Of a stretch of 64,000 nt of DNA, positions 5,027 to 59,493 are shown in pieces (position 1 is the stretch's first letter; the number at the start of each line of letters is the position of its first letter). The notes under the pieces are model-generated. The model was not told the DNA's origin. It made no database searches and was given only the letters and a program-made list of their open reading frames with translations. Source of the DNA: Escherichia phage MN01. The stretch is taken from sequence record MT129652.1; one strand, 5' to 3'. A program made the position numbers and the translations under genes.

Positions 5027-5329
5027 ATGAAAACGTATAAAGAATTTATCACCGAAGCGCGCGTAAGTGCAGGTAAATTAGAAGCCGCTGTAAATAAAAA
5101 GGCCCATTCATTTCATGATTTACCAGATAAAGACCGTAAGAAACTTGTAAGCCTTTATATTGACAAAGAGCGTATTCTAGCTCTCCCTGGCGCTAACGAA
5201 GGTAAACAGGCCAAGCCTTTGAATTCTGTCGAAAAGAAAATTGATAACTTTGCTTCTAAGTTCGGCATGTCTATGGATGACCTTCAGCAAGCGGCTATCG
5301 AAGCAGCTAAAGCAATTAAAGGTAAATAA
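5027..5329 (+). CDS. capsid internal protein (IPII/IPIII type) with capsid targeting sequence
   Basis: N-terminus [11 protein letters not shown] matches T4 IP targeting sequence MKTYQEFIAEA with the I-x-E cleavage site. Confidence 0.8.
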
Positions 5330-5853: not shown

Positions 5854-6153
5854 ATGAAAACTTATCAAGAATTTATTACTGAAGCCAAAGCTCCTAAAGC
5901 ATTTCAAATTGGGGTTCAGGGTAATTTAGACCAACAATATGTTGATGCTATTGTAGCAAGCCTCGGTAAACAGGGTGTACAAGTGGATTTGGTTGATTTT
6001 ACTAAAGGTAATACTTTTAATATTGTTACATCTAAAGGTTCTTTAGCTAAAGTTAAAAAGGCCTTTGGTGTAGCACAAGCATACGAAATCGACCATTCTG
6101 AATTAGAAAATAAAGGTCGCCAGAACACAATTAAAGGTTCTGGTTCTTTCTAA
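5854..6153 (+). CDS. capsid internal protein with capsid targeting sequence
   Basis: MKTYQEFITEA at ATG 5854; the track's 5815 start is inside the -10 element. Confidence 0.75.
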   Translation: MKTYQEFITEAKAPKAFQIGVQGNLDQQYVDAIVASLGKQGVQVDLVDFTKGNTFNIVTSKGSLAKVKKAFGVAQAYEIDHSELENKGRQNTIKGSGSF

Positions 6154-10783: not shown

Positions 10784-11059
10784 ATGGTATACAAGGTTTG
10801 GACGTATATCTCTATTTTGATATTTCTGGTTCTGGTTTTTGTTCCTATGCAACAGGACCAGGAAAGGTATGAGCGCGAAGTCGAAATCGTGGCAAGTACC
10901 TATCACTCGTTCAATAAAGAGTGTCCTAATAAAAATGGAATAAGCCTGCAACAAGCATACTATTTGTCAACGGTCACCAGTCCAAAACAACGGGTCTGGG
11001 TCGAACGTAATTTTGCAAGTTTATTTTCAGAGTACTGCTTTAATTTTAAACGTTTATAA
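10784..11059 (+). CDS. membrane protein (91 aa)
   Basis: SD GAGGT; N-terminal TM WTYISILIFLVLVFV. Confidence 0.55.
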   Translation: MVYKVWTYISILIFLVLVFVPMQQDQERYEREVEIVASTYHSFNKECPNKNGISLQQAYYLSTVTSPKQRVWVERNFASLFSEYCFNFKRL

Positions 11060-11062
11060 ATA
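11055..11062 (+). promoter_or_regulatory. late promoter TATAAATA upstream of rI
   Basis: Exact 8-mer. Confidence 0.6.
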
Positions 11063-11131
11063 CAGTTGCTAACTAGTATTCCGCTATGTTAAGGCTGCAA
11101 AGCGTAATCATGACCAACAATAGGAGTCCTT

Positions 11132-43675: not shown

Positions 43676-43969
43676 ATGAAAAAGTTATTAATCGCGGCAA
43701 TTCTTACCGTAGCATCATGTGGTACAGCTCCAGTTACTGCTGGACTTGATAAAGACCTTTGTGAGTGGTCTATGACTGCCGACCAGACTGATGTTGAACA
43801 TCAGATTTATGCTGATATCATGAACATAACTAAACGTGACCGCCCTGATATGGTTAAAGAAGTATCTGACCAATTGACTTCTGGTGACGTTATGCAGTAT
43901 AACTATGTTCTGTATTGCGATGCTTCATTTGACAATAGCAAAATTGTTCAATGGGTTACAGGTGAATAA
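43676..43969 (+). CDS. sp: Spackle (periplasmic lysozyme inhibitor, superinfection exclusion)
   Basis: 97 aa; signal peptide ending VASC; DKDLCEWSMTADQT..VMQYNYVLYCD as I recall for T4 Sp. Confidence 0.7.
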   Translation: MKKLLIAAILTVASCGTAPVTAGLDKDLCEWSMTADQTDVEHQIYADIMNITKRDRPDMVKEVSDQLTSGDVMQYNYVLYCDASFDNSKIVQWVTGE

Positions 43970-43970
43970 A

Positions 43971-44408
43971 ATGATTAACAGAAATTTAGTTATCAAAAAA
44001 CTTCGCTGTAAAAATCCAAATGCACAGGCATACCGGGTGTTTTGGAGCGATGAAATTCAATACCTGGGTTATTTTCTTGTTGATAGTGATGACAGAATTA
44101 CGTTTGCTCATAAGCTTCTTAACAAAGAATTAAACCATTGGCAAGAACTTATTGCAGTCAAGTCTAAATTATTTTCGCGCAATACAATGCACCAATTGGT
44201 TTATTTTTTCGCTGATGGTATTCCTGACAAGGTTGAATTTGATGGGTTTGAATTTAAAGACATCAACCCTGACAATGAATTGAATGACAGTATTGTTAAT
44301 ATGGGTATCCCAGGTAAGTACATTAAAAACAGTCTTTTGAAACTTCTGGAAACCCCTGTATATTCAGTAGACGACCAAATTTTTAATGCCTTTATGAAGC
44401 GAGATTAA
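43971..44408 (+). CDS. hypothetical protein (145 aa) with DDQIFNAFMKR tail
   Basis: ATG 43971 after the sp stop; ends VDDQIFNAFMKRD. Confidence 0.55.
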   Translation: MINRNLVIKKLRCKNPNAQAYRVFWSDEIQYLGYFLVDSDDRITFAHKLLNKELNHWQELIAVKSKLFSRNTMHQLVYFFADGIPDKVEFDGFEFKDINPDNELNDSIVNMGIPGKYIKNSLLKLLETPVYSVDDQIFNAFMKRD

Positions 44409-44409
44409 T

Positions 44410-44778
44410 ATGTATATTCAAAGCGATTTATCTTATCTGAATTTTGAATTAGTTAAAAATAATGATGGTAATGCTCATTATGAATTCCGTGAACCCAGGT
44501 TTAATCAGGCGATTGGTTATATCATCGTTAAAGATGATGTTATCATAAAGGCTCGCTCATTTATGGTAATGAATGGGCCTTATGAAGATACTCGTGGCTA
44601 TCCATTTGATAAAAAGAATGTACGCGATTGTGCAGCATGGATAACCGGAAACCCTGAAATTGGGGTCATGTTATCTACTGAAGCAAATGACATTCTGGAT
44701 GCTGGCTGGGTTAAAGCTCAAGAACCGCCTACTGATATTGATGACCAGATTTTTAATGCTTTCATGAAGCGAGGTTAA
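44410..44778 (+). CDS. hypothetical protein (122 aa) with DDQIFNAFMKR tail
   Basis: Ends IDDQIFNAFMKRG. Confidence 0.55.
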   Translation: MYIQSDLSYLNFELVKNNDGNAHYEFREPRFNQAIGYIIVKDDVIIKARSFMVMNGPYEDTRGYPFDKKNVRDCAAWITGNPEIGVMLSTEANDILDAGWVKAQEPPTDIDDQIFNAFMKRG

Positions 44779-44779
44779 T

Positions 44780-44971
44780 ATGACTGCAATGTGTACGGGC
44801 TCTAAGATTTCGGTCTTCCAGATTTTTGAAGAATATGAAATCGTGTCGCAAGACCAAGAAGCAATCCATGTTATTGCTGATGATGGGGTTACCTGGATTA
44901 TTCCGTTGTATCATGAAGACACTTATGAAGTGACTGATGCAAATGGTGATAAAGCTATCTTCGTTGTATAA
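44780..44971 (+). CDS. hypothetical acidic protein (63 aa)
   Basis: SD GAGGT. Confidence 0.5.
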   Translation: MTAMCTGSKISVFQIFEEYEIVSQDQEAIHVIADDGVTWIIPLYHEDTYEVTDANGDKAIFVV

Positions 44972-44974
44972 ATA
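44967..44974 (+). promoter_or_regulatory. late promoter TATAAATA
   Basis: Exact 8-mer 17 nt upstream of ATG 44991. Confidence 0.6.
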
Positions 44975-44990
44975 GCGGAAAGGGGGTGTT

Positions 44991-45158
44991 ATGAAAACAT
45001 TCAAAGATTTTATCAACGAAGATATGGTTGCCGGTGATGCAGGCGGAAACCCAACTAATATCGCAACAGGTACCACTTCCGGGGCAGTTGTCAATAAAGG
45101 CCCTGAACAAATCCCATCAAAAAAGCGTAAGAACAAAGACGATAAACCTACAGTATAA
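44991..45158 (+). CDS. 55-aa protein with capsid-targeting-like N-terminus
   Basis: SD AAGGGGG; MKTFKDFINED resembles the IP targeting sequences MKTY[KQ]EFITEA in this window; basic tail KKRKNK. Confidence 0.5.
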   Translation: MKTFKDFINEDMVAGDAGGNPTNIATGTTSGAVVNKGPEQIPSKKRKNKDDKPTV

Positions 45159-45175
45159 TGGTCCTTCGGGGCCAT
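45158..45175 (+). terminator. GC hairpin (no T-run)
   Basis: ATGGTCC-TTCG-GGGCCAT. Confidence 0.4.
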
Positions 45176-45190
45176 TGAAATGAGGAAACT

Positions 45191-46219
45191 ATGTCATATA
45201 TTGATAAAGAATTTGCAGTCAGAGCTTTATCGTATCAACCACGTTATAGAGAAGTCACCGGGAGCACATTTAAGGCAAACTGTCGTTGCAAGGTTTGCGG
45301 TGACTCTCAGAAAGATTCACACAAGGCCCGATTCTGGGCGTATACCAATCCGGCTGACGGTGCGGTTTACGTGAAATGTTTTAACTGTGACTACTCCACG
45401 CATATAAGCAAATACATAAAAGAGTTTGAGCCTGATTTACATCGGGAATATATGGTTGAGAAGTATAAGGAGAATGCCTTTGGCAGACAACGTAATGAAG
45501 TTGCAGAAACTCCGAAAGAACCAGAAAAAACTCCGGTTATTGAGCAACTTGCTTTTTGCGAAAGAATCGATACTTTACCAGAAGCGCATCCGATAGTTAA
45601 GTATGTAAAAAGTCGGTGTATTCCGAGCAATGTTTGGAACCGGTTATGGTTTACAAACAAATGGCCTGCATTAGTTAACTCCGTTAATCCTGGGACGTAT
45701 AAGAATGAAACGAATGAACCACGCTTGGTTATTCCTATCTTCAACGGCAAAAAAGAAATCGAATCTTTCCAAGGACGAGCTCTTCGCAAAGATGCACCAC
45801 AAAAATATATCACAATCAAAGCCCACCCAGAAGCTTCCAAAGTCTATGGTGTAGACAAGATTGACGAACGCAAGCGCGTGTGGGTAATGGAAGGTCCGAT
45901 TGATAGTTTGTTTATCCCTAACAGCATTGCGATAACCGGTGGAACATTAGCATTGGAAGCCGTTCCTTATGCAGAAACCCGAGTATGGGTAATGGACAAC
46001 GAGCCAAGACATCCTGATACGATTAAACGTATGAAGAAACTTGTTGAAGCCGGTGAAGCCGTTATGTTCTGGGACAATGCACCATGGCATACGAAAGACA
46101 TAAATGAGATGGTTAAATCAGAGGGTGCAACCCCTGAACAAATCGAATCATATATGGCCGATAACGTTACTCAAGGGCTGCTGGCGAGAATGCGACTTTC
46201 GAAGTACGCAAAAGTTTAG
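45191..46219 (+). CDS. 61: DNA primase gp61
   Basis: 342 aa; zinc motif CRCKVCGDS..H..; Toprim region; collinear with T4 gp61. Confidence 0.95.
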   Translation: MSYIDKEFAVRALSYQPRYREVTGSTFKANCRCKVCGDSQKDSHKARFWAYTNPADGAVYVKCFNCDYSTHISKYIKEFEPDLHREYMVEKYKENAFGRQRNEVAETPKEPEKTPVIEQLAFCERIDTLPEAHPIVKYVKSRCIPSNVWNRLWFTNKWPALVNSVNPGTYKNETNEPRLVIPIFNGKKEIESFQGRALRKDAPQKYITIKAHPEASKVYGVDKIDERKRVWVMEGPIDSLFIPNSIAITGGTLALEAVPYAETRVWVMDNEPRHPDTIKRMKKLVEAGEAVMFWDNAPWHTKDINEMVKSEGATPEQIESYMADNVTQGLLARMRLSKYAKV

Positions 46220-57660: not shown

Positions 57661-59490
57661 ATGATTAATAATGAAATTAAAGTACTCTCGGACGTTGAGC
57701 ATATCAAAAAACGTTCCGGGATGTATATTGGTTCCAGTTCAAATGAAGCGCATGAGCGATTCTTGTTTGGTGAATATAAGTCCGTAAGCTATGTTCCTGG
57801 TATTGTAAAACTGATTGATGAAATTATCGATAACTCTGTTGATGAAGCAATTCGCACCAGTTTTAAATTTGCCAATAAAATTGATGTCCAAATTAAAGAT
57901 AATCAGATTTCGGTTTCCGATAATGGCCGTGGTATTCCACAGGCAATGGTTACAGACCAAAACGGTGAACAAATCCCTGGCCCTGTTGCAGCATGGACTA
58001 TTCCAAAAGCTGGTGGTAACTTCGGCGATGATGCTGAACGTAAAACTGGCGGGATGAACGGCGTCGGGTCTTCTCTGACCAATATTTTCTCTGTATTGTT
58101 TACCGGGATTACCGCTGATGGTGCAAATGAAATCACCGTTAACTGCTCCAATGGTATGGAAAACAAATGTTGGTCGACTAAGAAATCAAAAGGTAAAGGT
58201 ACGACTGTTATATTTATTCCAGACTTTAGTCACTTTGAAGAAAATAGTCTGTCCCAGATTTATCTGGATATTACATTGGACCGTCTGCAGACTCTTGCGG
58301 TTGTTTATCCGGATATTCAGTTTACCTTTAATGGTAAAAAGGTTGATGGTAATTTCAAAAAGTTTGCCAAGCAATTCGGAACCGAAGTTGTTATCCAGGA
58401 AACTGATACAGTATCGATGGCCTTTACGACTAGTCCGGATGGTTTCCGTCAGTTGACTTATGTCAACAACATTCATACAAAGAATGGTGGGCACCACGTT
58501 GAATGTGTTATGGATGATATCTGTGAACATCTTCAACCAGCCATTAAACGCAAATATAAAGGCATTGAGGTGACCAAGGCACGAGTTAAAGAATGTCTCA
58601 CCATGCTTATGTTCATCCGCGATATGAGCAACATGCGATTTGATTCCCAGACTAAGGAGCGATTGACTTCTCCGGCTGGTGAAATTCGAAATCACATTAA
58701 GATTGATGCCAAGAAAATCGCGCAAGCTATTCTGAAAAATGAACCGCTGATTATGCCGATTGTTGAAGCTGCATTAGCCCGTAAATTGGCAGCAGAGAAA
58801 GCAGCAGAGACAAAGGCGAATAAGAAAGCTTCGAAGGCCAAGGTGCAGAAACATATCAAGGCAAACGAATGGGGTAATGATAAACTGGAAACGACTCTGT
58901 TCCTGACCGAAGGTGATTCCGCAACCGGTCCATTTATCAAGGTTCGCGACCGTGAATTGCAAGGTGCTTATCCGTTACGCGGTAAGTTCAAAAACACATG
59001 GGGTCTGAAAGCTGTTGACGTTATGAAGAACGCCGAAGCCTTTGATGTGTGTGCGATTACTGGTTTAACGATTGGACAACCGGCCGAGAATATGAATTAC
59101 CGAAACATTGCTATCATGACAGATGCGGATGTGGATGGTGTCGGTAGTATCTATCCATCGTTATTGGCGTTTTTCAGTAACTGGCCAGAGTTGTTCCATG
59201 AAGGACGAATTCGCTTTGTGAAAACTCCTGTTATTATTGCGCAGCTCAAAGATAAACAAGAATGGTTCTATTCTCTTCCTGACTATGAAGAAGCTAAGGA
59301 TAAACTTCCGAAGCACACCATCCGATATATCAAGGGGCTTGGTTCTCTGGAAGATGCCGAGTACAAACGCGTATTGCTCGAACCGGTATTCGAAGTTGTT
59401 GAATTACCTGACAACTGGAAAGAACTGTTCGAAATGCTCTTCGGTAAAGATTCCCAGCAGCGTAAAGATTGGATGAATGCGACACTATAA
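57661..59490 (+). CDS. 39: DNA topoisomerase II large (ATPase) subunit, gp39 and gp60 fused
   Basis: INNEIKVLSDVEHIKKRSGMYIGS..; C-terminus MTDADVDGVGSIYPSLL..GRIRFVKTPVII corresponds to T4 gp60; ATG 57658 also possible. Confidence 0.96.
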   Translation: MINNEIKVLSDVEHIKKRSGMYIGSSSNEAHERFLFGEYKSVSYVPGIVKLIDEIIDNSVDEAIRTSFKFANKIDVQIKDNQISVSDNGRGIPQAMVTDQNGEQIPGPVAAWTIPKAGGNFGDDAERKTGGMNGVGSSLTNIFSVLFTGITADGANEITVNCSNGMENKCWSTKKSKGKGTTVIFIPDFSHFEENSLSQIYLDITLDRLQTLAVVYPDIQFTFNGKKVDGNFKKFAKQFGTEVVIQETDTVSMAFTTSPDGFRQLTYVNNIHTKNGGHHVECVMDDICEHLQPAIKRKYKGIEVTKARVKECLTMLMFIRDMSNMRFDSQTKERLTSPAGEIRNHIKIDAKKIAQAILKNEPLIMPIVEAALARKLAAEKAAETKANKKASKAKVQKHIKANEWGNDKLETTLFLTEGDSATGPFIKVRDRELQGAYPLRGKFKNTWGLKAVDVMKNAEAFDVCAITGLTIGQPAENMNYRNIAIMTDADVDGVGSIYPSLLAFFSNWPELFHEGRIRFVKTPVIIAQLKDKQEWFYSLPDYEEAKDKLPKHTIRYIKGLGSLEDAEYKRVLLEPVFEVVELPDNWKELFEMLFGKDSQQRKDWMNATL

Positions 59491-59493
59491 ATA
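59486..59493 (+). promoter_or_regulatory. late promoter TATAAATA overlapping the gene 39 stop
   Basis: Exact 8-mer. Confidence 0.5.

Follow-up and report, generated by a model that had tools for sequence, protein, structure and literature searches.

Gene 61.1 of the T4-like phages encodes a small protein whose core is a paralogous copy of the cleavage site and N-fist of the capsid protein gp23. We studied it in a 64,000-nucleotide stretch of DNA from Escherichia phage MN01 (sequence record MT129652.1; the whole stretch is called the window below), a T4-like genome segment of the genus Gaprivervirus that is about 95% identical to SP18, VR7 and VR20. There the gene is an open reading frame (ORF) of 55 codons plus stop on the plus strand at 44991-45158, as given in the ORF list, and its product is MKTFKDFINEDMVAGDAGGNPTNIATGTTSGAVVNKGPEQIPSKKRKNKDDKPTV. 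In this protein the gp23-like segment is joined to a leader that resembles the capsid-targeting sequence (CTS) of the internal head proteins. To our minds the best explanation, with about an even chance of being right, is that gp61.1 is a prohead-associated substrate of the protease gp21 and a variant of the CTS-bearing head proteins.

A preliminary description of this DNA had reported an exact TATAAATA at 44967-44974, the Shine-Dalgarno (SD) sequence AAGGGGG and the 55-amino-acid ORF, and all three are where it placed them. The ORF is not an unannotated novelty: by sequence identity it is the short-form ortholog of T4 gene 61.1, and gp61.1 is annotated in SP18, VR7 and T4, with SP18 and T4 carrying it at the same locus. 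The product is 100% identical to VR7 gp61.1 and 86% identical over residues 1-42 to that of T4 (tblastn), which reads MKTFKEFIKEDMVAGDSGGNPENISIGTTSGAVVNKGPEQIPKKKKEESKEKEE. Residues 1-52 match phrog_1823 with an E value of 1e-32; PHROG 1823 represents the short form of the protein and PHROG 2086 a long form that is described below. We found 61.1 in 1,518 phage records by tblastn, with database labels of "hypothetical" or "major capsid domain-containing protein". Most of these records gave two places, some of them under "major capsid protein" annotations, because 61.1 resembles gp23.

The phages that carry 61.1 have hosts among the Enterobacteria, Vibrio, Acinetobacter, Sinorhizobium and Methylophilales. 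The gene is directly upstream of the primase gene and on the same strand in SP18, T4, RB69, Konradin, phiR1-RT and KVP40, as it is here, and in KVP40 it sits directly between the helicase and the primase. Such a stable locus across phages of very different hosts favours a phage-intrinsic rather than a host-specific role. Conservation of the frame in relatives, whose absence would have counted against the preliminary description, was borne out: the ratio of non-synonymous to synonymous differences (pN/pS) in the conserved core is 0.04-0.19 between lineages, synonymous differences are near saturation, and variable columns are distributed over the three codon positions as 7, 6 and 27 of 33. Together, the ratio and the codon-position pattern identify 61.1 as a real protein-coding gene. 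Scans of the short and long forms against Pfam and NCBIfam gave no matches, Rfam gave no credible match, and full-text literature searches for 61.1 returned only genome tables, with no function published in the searchable literature.

The likeness to gp23 is detected by several kinds of comparison. Residues 2-46 align without gaps to residues 55-99 of VR7 gp23 (42% identity, E 1e-9, BLASTP), and T4 61.1 aligns to residues 57-93 of T4 gp23 at 46% identity (E 6e-9). Shuffle tests of 61.1 against gp23 gave p values of about 1e-9 for this phage, 2e-11 for the Slopekvirus Roth22 and 3e-9 for KVP40, while a profile comparison of 51 long-form members with seven gp23 N-termini (hhalign) returned a probability of 97.7% and an E value of 2e-12 for a match confined to gp23 53-103. 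The alignment is in register, with I-N-E10|D11 of 61.1 falling on L-T-E65|A66 of gp23 (T4 numbering), so the predicted cleavage site is homologous to a real prohead-protease site. Residues 11-38 (DMVAGDAGGNPTNIATGTTSGAVVNKGP, encoded at 45021-45104 on the plus strand) copy the first 28 or so residues of mature gp23*, the N-fist (T4 66-93). They are followed at residues 44-49 (45120-45137, plus strand) by the Lys/Arg cluster KKRKNK, which aligns with gp23 M98-VRRA in the profile comparison, was found in the family members inspected (family tabulation), and precedes a variable C-terminal end. What had been described as a Gly/Thr-rich peptide is, then, a paralogous copy of the gp23 cleavage site and N-fist. 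The basic KKRKNK tail proposed for it is present as a short Lys/Arg cluster, but the peptide is not strongly basic: hand counts give it a net charge near +2 in this phage and near -2 in T4.

The counterpart of this segment in gp23 has been described in the literature. The protease gp21 removes the first 65 residues of gp23 (PMC9546572), and mature gp23* starts with an unusual N-fist (66-91) that contacts four neighbouring subunits and helps to form the Soc site (PMC9958956, PMC7136217). Before expansion, residues 66-105 of gp23 have no ordered structure in the prohead; they are located inside the shell and are believed to touch the scaffolding core. The head-length mutations A66D, A94V and G97S fall within this region (PMC9546572). 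Gp61.1 is homologous to gp23 over 53-103, that is, over the end of the delta-piece, the E65|A66 junction, the N-fist and the start of the N-arm, with the cleavage Glu in register. It differs in having Asp or Glu rather than Ala at the position after the cleaved bond (P1'), in a Lys/Arg cluster that replaces the MVRRAIP... N-arm and the Gol region, and in the absence of the HK97-fold body, the match being confined to 53-103 of gp23 in a protein of 55 amino acids that matches nothing in Pfam. Lacking that body, gp61.1 does not qualify as a capsid protein, and the name it bears in databases is wrong; our reading corrects a widespread labelling of a 55-160-amino-acid protein as "major capsid protein" or "major capsid domain-containing protein".

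As DNA, the gp23 and 61.1 segments are only 52-57% identical, and identical residues are mostly specified by different codons. The duplication must therefore be old and have escaped homogenisation by gene conversion; recent conversion between 61.1 and gene 23, which we considered, is ruled out by this low identity and by the randomised synonymous sites. On the sequence comparisons the likeness to gp23 is kept at the protein level by selection, in both genes. No match to gp23 with a database-wide E of 1e-3 or below came out of an exhaustive phmmer search, so the homology rests on the pairwise, shuffle and profile tests, and in the pair from phage Melnitz the shuffle test was not significant (p 0.08). 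One odd phmmer match, the 2,982-amino-acid cadherin-repeat protein P0156, was discarded as a compositional false positive.

We also asked whether 61.1 tracks the gp23 of its own phage. In Sinorhizobium phage phiM12 gp23 has no T4-type N-fist (...LLQE|AAPTTNTGNIATYDPVL...), and the family protein ends ...VEVE|GSAVPSTNTGNIPDTVAKKSPVLKRKEK (AVPSTNTGNI...SPVL), resembling its own gp23 mature N-terminus with 12 identities at exactly the expected positions; 7 of 2,000 shuffles were as good (p about 3e-3). Smaller shared elements are KIASG and TNIGP, common to 61.1 and gp23 of Roth22, and VV and TTGAVT in KVP40. A permutation test of cognate against non-cognate pairs over eight lineages gave p 0.008, driven by phiM12 alone. 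Matching to the overall type of a phage's own gp23 is thus supported by one distant case, phiM12.

The CTS-like leader and the long form

Residues 1-10 of the protein, MKTFKDFINE (44991-45020, plus strand), form a leader that ends in the predicted prohead-protease site I-N-E|D. The preliminary description had likened it to the leaders of internal proteins (IPs) in the window, and this parallel proved sound. Two ORFs at 5027-5329 and 5854-6153 match phrog_7857 (E 1e-54) and phrog_2667 (E 8e-43) and are, by these matches, genuine internal virion or head proteins. The 61.1 leader shares seven of ten residues with one of their leaders; the other reads MKTYQEFITE. The equivalent gp23 residues, EAFGSFLTE, are less similar to the 61.1 leader than are the IP leaders. 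Over the first 33 nucleotides 61.1 is identical to the two IP genes at 26 and 23 positions (70-79%) and to the gp23 segment at 17, with the IP genes themselves sharing 28 of 33. A loose CTS pattern, run over the whole window in six frames, was fitted by three ORFs only: the two IPs and 61.1. A passage of PMC9026906 that cites Mullaney and Black 1996 assigns CTS positions 4 and 7 to targeting and positions 8 and 10 to processing, and the 61.1 leader, with F4, F7, I8 and E10, has kept all four. By these sequence measures it is CTS-like.

It is instructive to compare gp61.1 with the CTS-bearing internal head proteins of the T-even phages (IPI, IPII, IPIII, Alt and the polymorphic IPs). Like them it has a ten-residue N-terminal leader, MKT[FY]K[DE]FIxE, that carries the four mapped positions and ends in I-x-E, and its closest matches are the leaders of the IPs in this window. 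In the internal proteins this leads into a globular cargo; in 61.1 the folded cargo domain is missing and the predicted mature part consists of 45 residues that copy the gp23 N-terminus and are predicted to be disordered in the long form. The gene is found at the 41-61 locus, not at an IP locus, and most members of its family have a helical domain of 105 residues in place of the leader.

These members make up the long form. Many relatives encode a protein of 150-165 amino acids at the 61.1 locus, among them RB69-type, S16-type and KVP40-type phages, Karamvirus, Tegunavirus and Slopekvirus, and Acinetobacter and Aeromonas phages, and more divergent homologues of its N-terminal domain (N-domain) occur in phiM12 (141 amino acids) and Melnitz (203 amino acids). 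In all, 619 phage records and 111 protein clusters contain the long form. It consists of an N-domain of about 105 residues, two [LIVM]-x-E motifs, the MVAGD...GP core and a Lys/Arg run. The N-domain (some 100 well-conserved residues) is modelled by AlphaFold2 as a helical bundle, with a confidence score (pLDDT) of 84-92 for residues 10-70, and the core is predicted to be disordered on its own (pLDDT below 50). The two motifs are kept in 98% (I-T-E95) and 94% (L-x-E109) of long forms, where the background rate is 0.022 per residue; in Alt both ITE and LTE are known to be cut by gp21 (PMC5694885).

Among 155 family members 114 have the long N-domain, 32 the short leader and 9 an intermediate arrangement, and a hydrophobic-x-Glu-[D/E/A/S] stands directly before the core in nearly all of them. 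The I-x-E of the prohead-protease kind that the preliminary description had picked out is supported: it aligns exactly with L-T-E|A of gp23, and its hydrophobic-x-Glu is kept across the 155 members. The long form is probably ancestral, since it spans the most divergent phages, and the 55-amino-acid form looks like a derived version truncated from the widespread protein of about 155 amino acids. In some Tevenvirinae, we infer, the N-domain was replaced by an IP-type CTS. Comparison by hhalign of the N-domain with the gp23 delta-piece, gp68 and gp22 revealed no relationship, and a fold search of PDB with the long-form model found nothing (best E 2.2). The same search of BFVD returned only family members and some unnamed larger proteins.

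Several observations on the wider family may be recorded here. The larger BFVD matches are viral proteins of 387-913 amino acids (A0A411BBR2, A0A1B1IT15 and others) at 20-35% identity, which may represent the neighbouring helicase or primase fused to the family protein, or wrongly called ORFs. In the RB69 reference (NC_004928.1 17317-17783; L027) the long-form 61.1 is frameshifted into RB69ORF032c and gp61.1, and close relatives of RB69 have an intact protein of 155 amino acids; the frameshift is either a sequencing error or a mutation of the laboratory strain. A third architecture (L024 1210-1947; P0160, P0158 and P0131) adds to the 61.1 core an extra C-terminal domain of about 100 residues (MNEV...FKSxGxNxVVVEA...LVWK), with or without the N-domain, and may be a fusion with the downstream gene. 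Finally, an invariant LFESM.GG in gp22 (T4 113-120; L003 6118-6924) resembles LFEDMVAG of the long form over 8 columns only (E 0.07), and the two may represent a shared context for recognition by gp21.

Expression signals and particle proteomics

The T4-type late-promoter motif TATAAATA is matched exactly on the plus strand and overlaps the TAA stop (44969-44971) of an upstream conserved ORF of 63 amino acids (phrog_3249). The motif occupies -13 to -6 in T4 late promoters, and the transcript start that it implies here would be near 44980. The SD sequence, read from the DNA at 44980-44986 on the plus strand, is 4 nucleotides before the ATG; in other lineages this position is held by AGGAG or GAGGT. 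The number of TATAAATA copies in the window is no more than expected by chance (4 observed and 4.3 expected from shuffles). Their placement is non-random: all four are on the coding strand at gene boundaries, 16-47 nucleotides before an SD and ATG, and none of the four is within a gene. One of them precedes a gene for a Soc-like virion protein. Two others, at 11055-11062 and 59486-59493, overlap or abut the end of an upstream ORF and are followed by small ORFs, with ATGs at 11086/11132 and 59533 respectively, that may be unannotated late genes; a hairpin (gggagaatattctccc) follows the motif at 59486.

In other genomes TATAAATA is found 13-27 nucleotides upstream of the 61.1 ATG in Gaprivervirus, at our loci L008-13, L018-21 and L024, and in phiR1-RT, and Acinetobacter phages have it in the form CATAAATA. 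Besides Gaprivervirus, two of the motif-bearing lineages are short-form ones whose flanking sequences differ. No copy stands upstream of 61.1 in T4, RB69, Roth22, KVP40 and phiM12; in T4 the ATG of 61.1 overlaps the stop of 61.2. In three lineages an xTA-TAA codon pair overlaps the motif, whose conservation could therefore owe something to the coding sequence upstream.

A 9-bp hairpin (UAAUGGUCC-UUCG-GGGCCAUUG) starts at the 61.1 stop codon, between 61.1 and the SD of the primase gene, and occupies 45156-45177 on the plus strand. Its folding energy of -13 kcal/mol (z -1.6) is unremarkable taken alone. After the 61.1 stop at loci L008, L018, L022 and L025 there is a conserved TATAATGG and then lineage-specific complementary stems, some with a T-run: GGTCC/GGGCC, GGCTCTA/TAGAGCC, GGCTCTC/GAGAGCC, GGAACC/GGTTCC and GGCCTTA/TAAGGCC. 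The T4 61.1 locus does not have the 3' hairpin. As a sequence element the hairpin may serve as the 3' end, terminator or stabiliser of the 61.1 transcript, or it may promote or regulate gene 61. Gp61.1 of this phage is the same in kind as the T4 family, with the addition in this lineage of TATAAATA and a 3' hairpin that T4 lacks, and in motif-bearing lineages 61.1 looks like a compact promoter-SD-ORF-hairpin unit set inside an early operon.

Published proteomic data suggest a link between the family and phage particles. When purified phiR1-RT particles were examined with LC-MS/MS, Gp036, the 160-amino-acid long form of gp61.1, was detected (PMC6893735, Tables S3 and S4) with a score of 44.1, 61.9% coverage and 9 unique peptides, and the authors re-annotated it as particle-associated (PMC6893735). 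Scores and peptide numbers for head proteins in the same preparation were 61.5/11 for the gp21 homologue, 16.3/5 for gp22, 19.9/5 for Inh, 7.5/3 for gp68 and 3.4/1 for gp67 (PMC6893735). The Gp036 signal is within the range of those of true head-core proteins, and contamination is possible.

A proposed prohead substrate and competing roles

The model that we prefer for gp61.1, as a prohead-associated gp21 substrate, can be set out as a series of steps. Expression would depend on transcripts that read through the early 41-61 unit and, in this lineage, also on the gene's own late promoter. The leader and the gp23-like segment would dock the protein inside the assembling prohead, on its scaffolding core or inner shell, through the contacts used by the internal proteins and by the gp23 N-terminus. 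Cleavage by gp21 after Glu10 would leave a 45-residue peptide (DMVAGD...KKRKNK...) associated with the head, where it might compete with or complement gp23 N-termini during maturation, bind DNA, or be ejected. We infer the docking, the cleavage, the retention of the short-form peptide and its later role.

Like gp67 (the internal-peptide precursor), gp68 and the scaffold protein gp22, gp61.1 is small, has conserved hydrophobic-x-Glu motifs and, in its long form, was detected with phiR1-RT particles. It differs in having no detectable homology to gp68 or gp22 (hhalign probabilities of 0.3% and 0.8%) and in being encoded outside the 20-67-68-21-22-23 cluster. The layout of the long form is also like that of head proteins of the giant phages SPN3US and phiKZ, from which propeptides of more than 100 residues are removed at x-x-Glu (PMC5694885), and here the likeness is one of analogy only. 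The giant-phage propeptides are removed, whereas the coverage in phiR1-RT implies that the 61.1 N-domain stays with the particles.

A number of observations weigh against a role as a gp21 substrate in the prohead. Gp61.1 is not among the nine T4 head proteins with mapped gp21 sites, and the supplements of the T4 head mass spectrometry paper do not mention it. The residue at P1' is usually Asp or Glu in the 61.1 family, while the verified site in gp23 has Ala; as A66D in gp23 is a head-length mutant, the efficiency with which 61.1 would be cleaved is uncertain. The gene lies between 41 and 61 in a region of replication and anti-toxin-antitoxin genes and not in the head-gene cluster, which is about 85 kb away in T4 and VR7. 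Fine-scale co-variation of 61.1 with gp23 was not significant over the seven T4-type lineages that remain when phiM12 is set aside (p 0.067). In the phiR1-RT preparation likely carry-over included DNA polymerase (9.7/3), thymidylate synthase (17.6/4) and gp32 (28.2/8) (PMC6893735), and the coverage of Gp036 means that the N-domain was present in the preparation and is not simply an expelled propeptide.

About half of the lineages sampled lack the late promoter, and the 5' leader that it implies is short: about 11 nucleotides here, and about 8-11 nucleotides when two further lineages are included. The T4 transcript of 61.1 belongs to the early class, and whole-cell proteomics did not detect the T4 protein (PMC9697503 Table S2). 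The T4 data are weak evidence, because the ipII and ipIII transcripts are also early in the same table (PMC9697503 Table S2) and because a cleaved product would be semi-tryptic. Taken together, the late-promoter drive proposed in the preliminary description is a reasonable reading for this lineage, in that the motif is well placed and recurs in diverged lineages; it does not extend to T4, RB69 and KVP40, where the motif is absent, nor to the early transcript of T4.

A bolder version of the same proposal, which we regard as possible though on balance doubtful, is that gp61.1 is an ancient and near-universal head component: a free copy of the gp23 maturation site and N-arm that enters the prohead and is processed by gp21, after which its N-fist-like peptide acts in trans while the head matures. 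The short form would enter by means of its borrowed IP leader and the long form by means of its own helical domain, and the action in trans would consist in occupying or competing for gp23 N-terminus contacts, or in tethering DNA through the Lys/Arg cluster. T4 head assembly is among the best-studied of morphogenetic pathways, and its inventory of core proteins and protease substrates is considered complete at 9 proteins and 13 sites. Were the proposal true, an overlooked player would be added to that pathway and a tenth substrate to the T4 protease list, and one unassigned density in the T4 head might be accounted for. Unassigned helical densities lie beneath the gp24* vertex subunits, for which a leftover fragment of digested core protein has been suggested (PMC9546572); they may be one place in which to look for a 61.1-derived peptide. 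The family would also offer a natural case of a CTS grafted onto a different cargo, and would bring together the CTS, the cleavage region of gp23 and the long giant-phage propeptides. Neither the gene nor its conservation is new, and automated pipelines have already picked up, and mislabelled, its likeness to the capsid protein. As far as the searchable literature shows, what is new is the anatomical reading of the protein as a CTS or N-domain followed by the gp23 maturation site, the N-fist copy and the Lys/Arg cluster, together with the relationship between the long and short forms, the conservation of the protease motifs and the connection with particle proteomics already published.

The closest alternative is that gp61.1 is a modulator of assembly or maturation that vies with gp23 N-termini for access to the core or to the active site of gp21, so tuning head length or the timing of cleavage and expansion, with no need to persist in the virion. 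We consider this unlikely. It overlaps heavily with the prohead-substrate model and differs from it mainly in the fate of the peptide, and the detection in phiR1-RT suggests persistence in particles. In favour of a modulator, the copied residues 53-103 of gp23 hold the protease site, the region of A66D, A94V and G97S and a proposed contact with gp22 (PMC9546572), most 61.1 members have Asp at the position equivalent to A66D, the core is predicted to be disordered like the gp23* N-terminus in the prohead, and many lineages have late promoters. No phenotype is known for 61.1. The extensive genetics of T4 head morphogenesis has, to our knowledge, never turned it up, and this counts against a modulator. 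A decoy of the capsid N-terminus that works in the cytoplasm, saturating or misleading a host defence or protease that recognises gp23, and that is neither structural nor packaged, strikes us as rather improbable. Its appeal lies in the neighbourhood, for the T4 61.x block encodes the anti-toxin factors Dmd, TifA (61.4) and AdfA (61.2), and other genes there are attractive candidates (PMC9391042); dmd, sp and two adfA-like ORFs lie just upstream of 61.1 in the window. With Dmd, TifA and AdfA gp61.1 shares not only its neighbourhood but also its small size and the early class of its T4 transcript, and selection keeps its likeness to the phage's own gp23. However, its distribution is far broader and more stable than theirs. 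Anti-defence genes are typically patchy, whereas this family is near-universal at a fixed position in phages of very different hosts, and it has head-related features that those proteins lack. The literature that we retrieved reports no relationship of 61.1 to any of the three. A purely cytoplasmic role would leave unexplained the CTS-like leader, the protease-type motifs and the signal in the particle mass spectrometry. Lit, the best-known capsid-triggered system, senses Gol, the most conserved part of gp23, which we take to be about residues 93-122; the similarity of 61.1 to gp23 runs no further than G92-P93, and the invariant block equivalent to Gol begins just after it. With the Gol core absent from 61.1, a decoy of the Lit/Gol kind was rejected as unlikely.

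From T4 to KVP40 61.1 keeps an invariant place, with gene 41 (or its neighbours) on one side and gene 61 on the other. In T4 it shares a transcript with early replication genes, and its Lys/Arg cluster could bind nucleic acid. These facts would suit an accessory to the flanking helicase and primase, in which the capsid-like segment was an evolutionary leftover. We hold such a role to be improbable. No part of the protein is better conserved than the capsid-like core, which is under purifying selection and so is not a leftover; the leader, the protease motifs, the late promoters and the particle mass spectrometry all point to the head, and the N-domain matched no replication-protein family in the Pfam, NCBIfam and PDB fold searches. 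A chance ORF, or a decaying fragment of a gp23 duplication without function, might be suspected from the short length (55 amino acids) and from the failure of proteomics to detect the T4 protein. It is by far the least credible of the explanations and is effectively refuted by the conservation, the selection and the long-form mass spectrometry data: the frame is conserved in more than 1,500 phage records with the pN/pS values and codon pattern given above, the SD is strong, and nine peptides of the long form have been detected.

Neighbouring genes

Gene 61, which encodes the DNA primase, is at 45191-46219 on the plus strand and is the invariant downstream neighbour of 61.1. On the upstream side of the region two adjacent ORFs, at 43884-44408 and 44410-44778, share the ending ...DDQIFNAFMKR[D/G]. 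It is like the C-terminus of T4 61.2 (AdfA, the anti-DarT factor), ...DDQIFNAFMNRG, and from it the two ORFs look like tandem adfA-like paralogues directly upstream of the 61.1 region. Outside the window, the closest annotated relative, VR7, has tandem paralogues of the gp24 vertex protein, 24(1) and 24(2) (L004 5503-8067).

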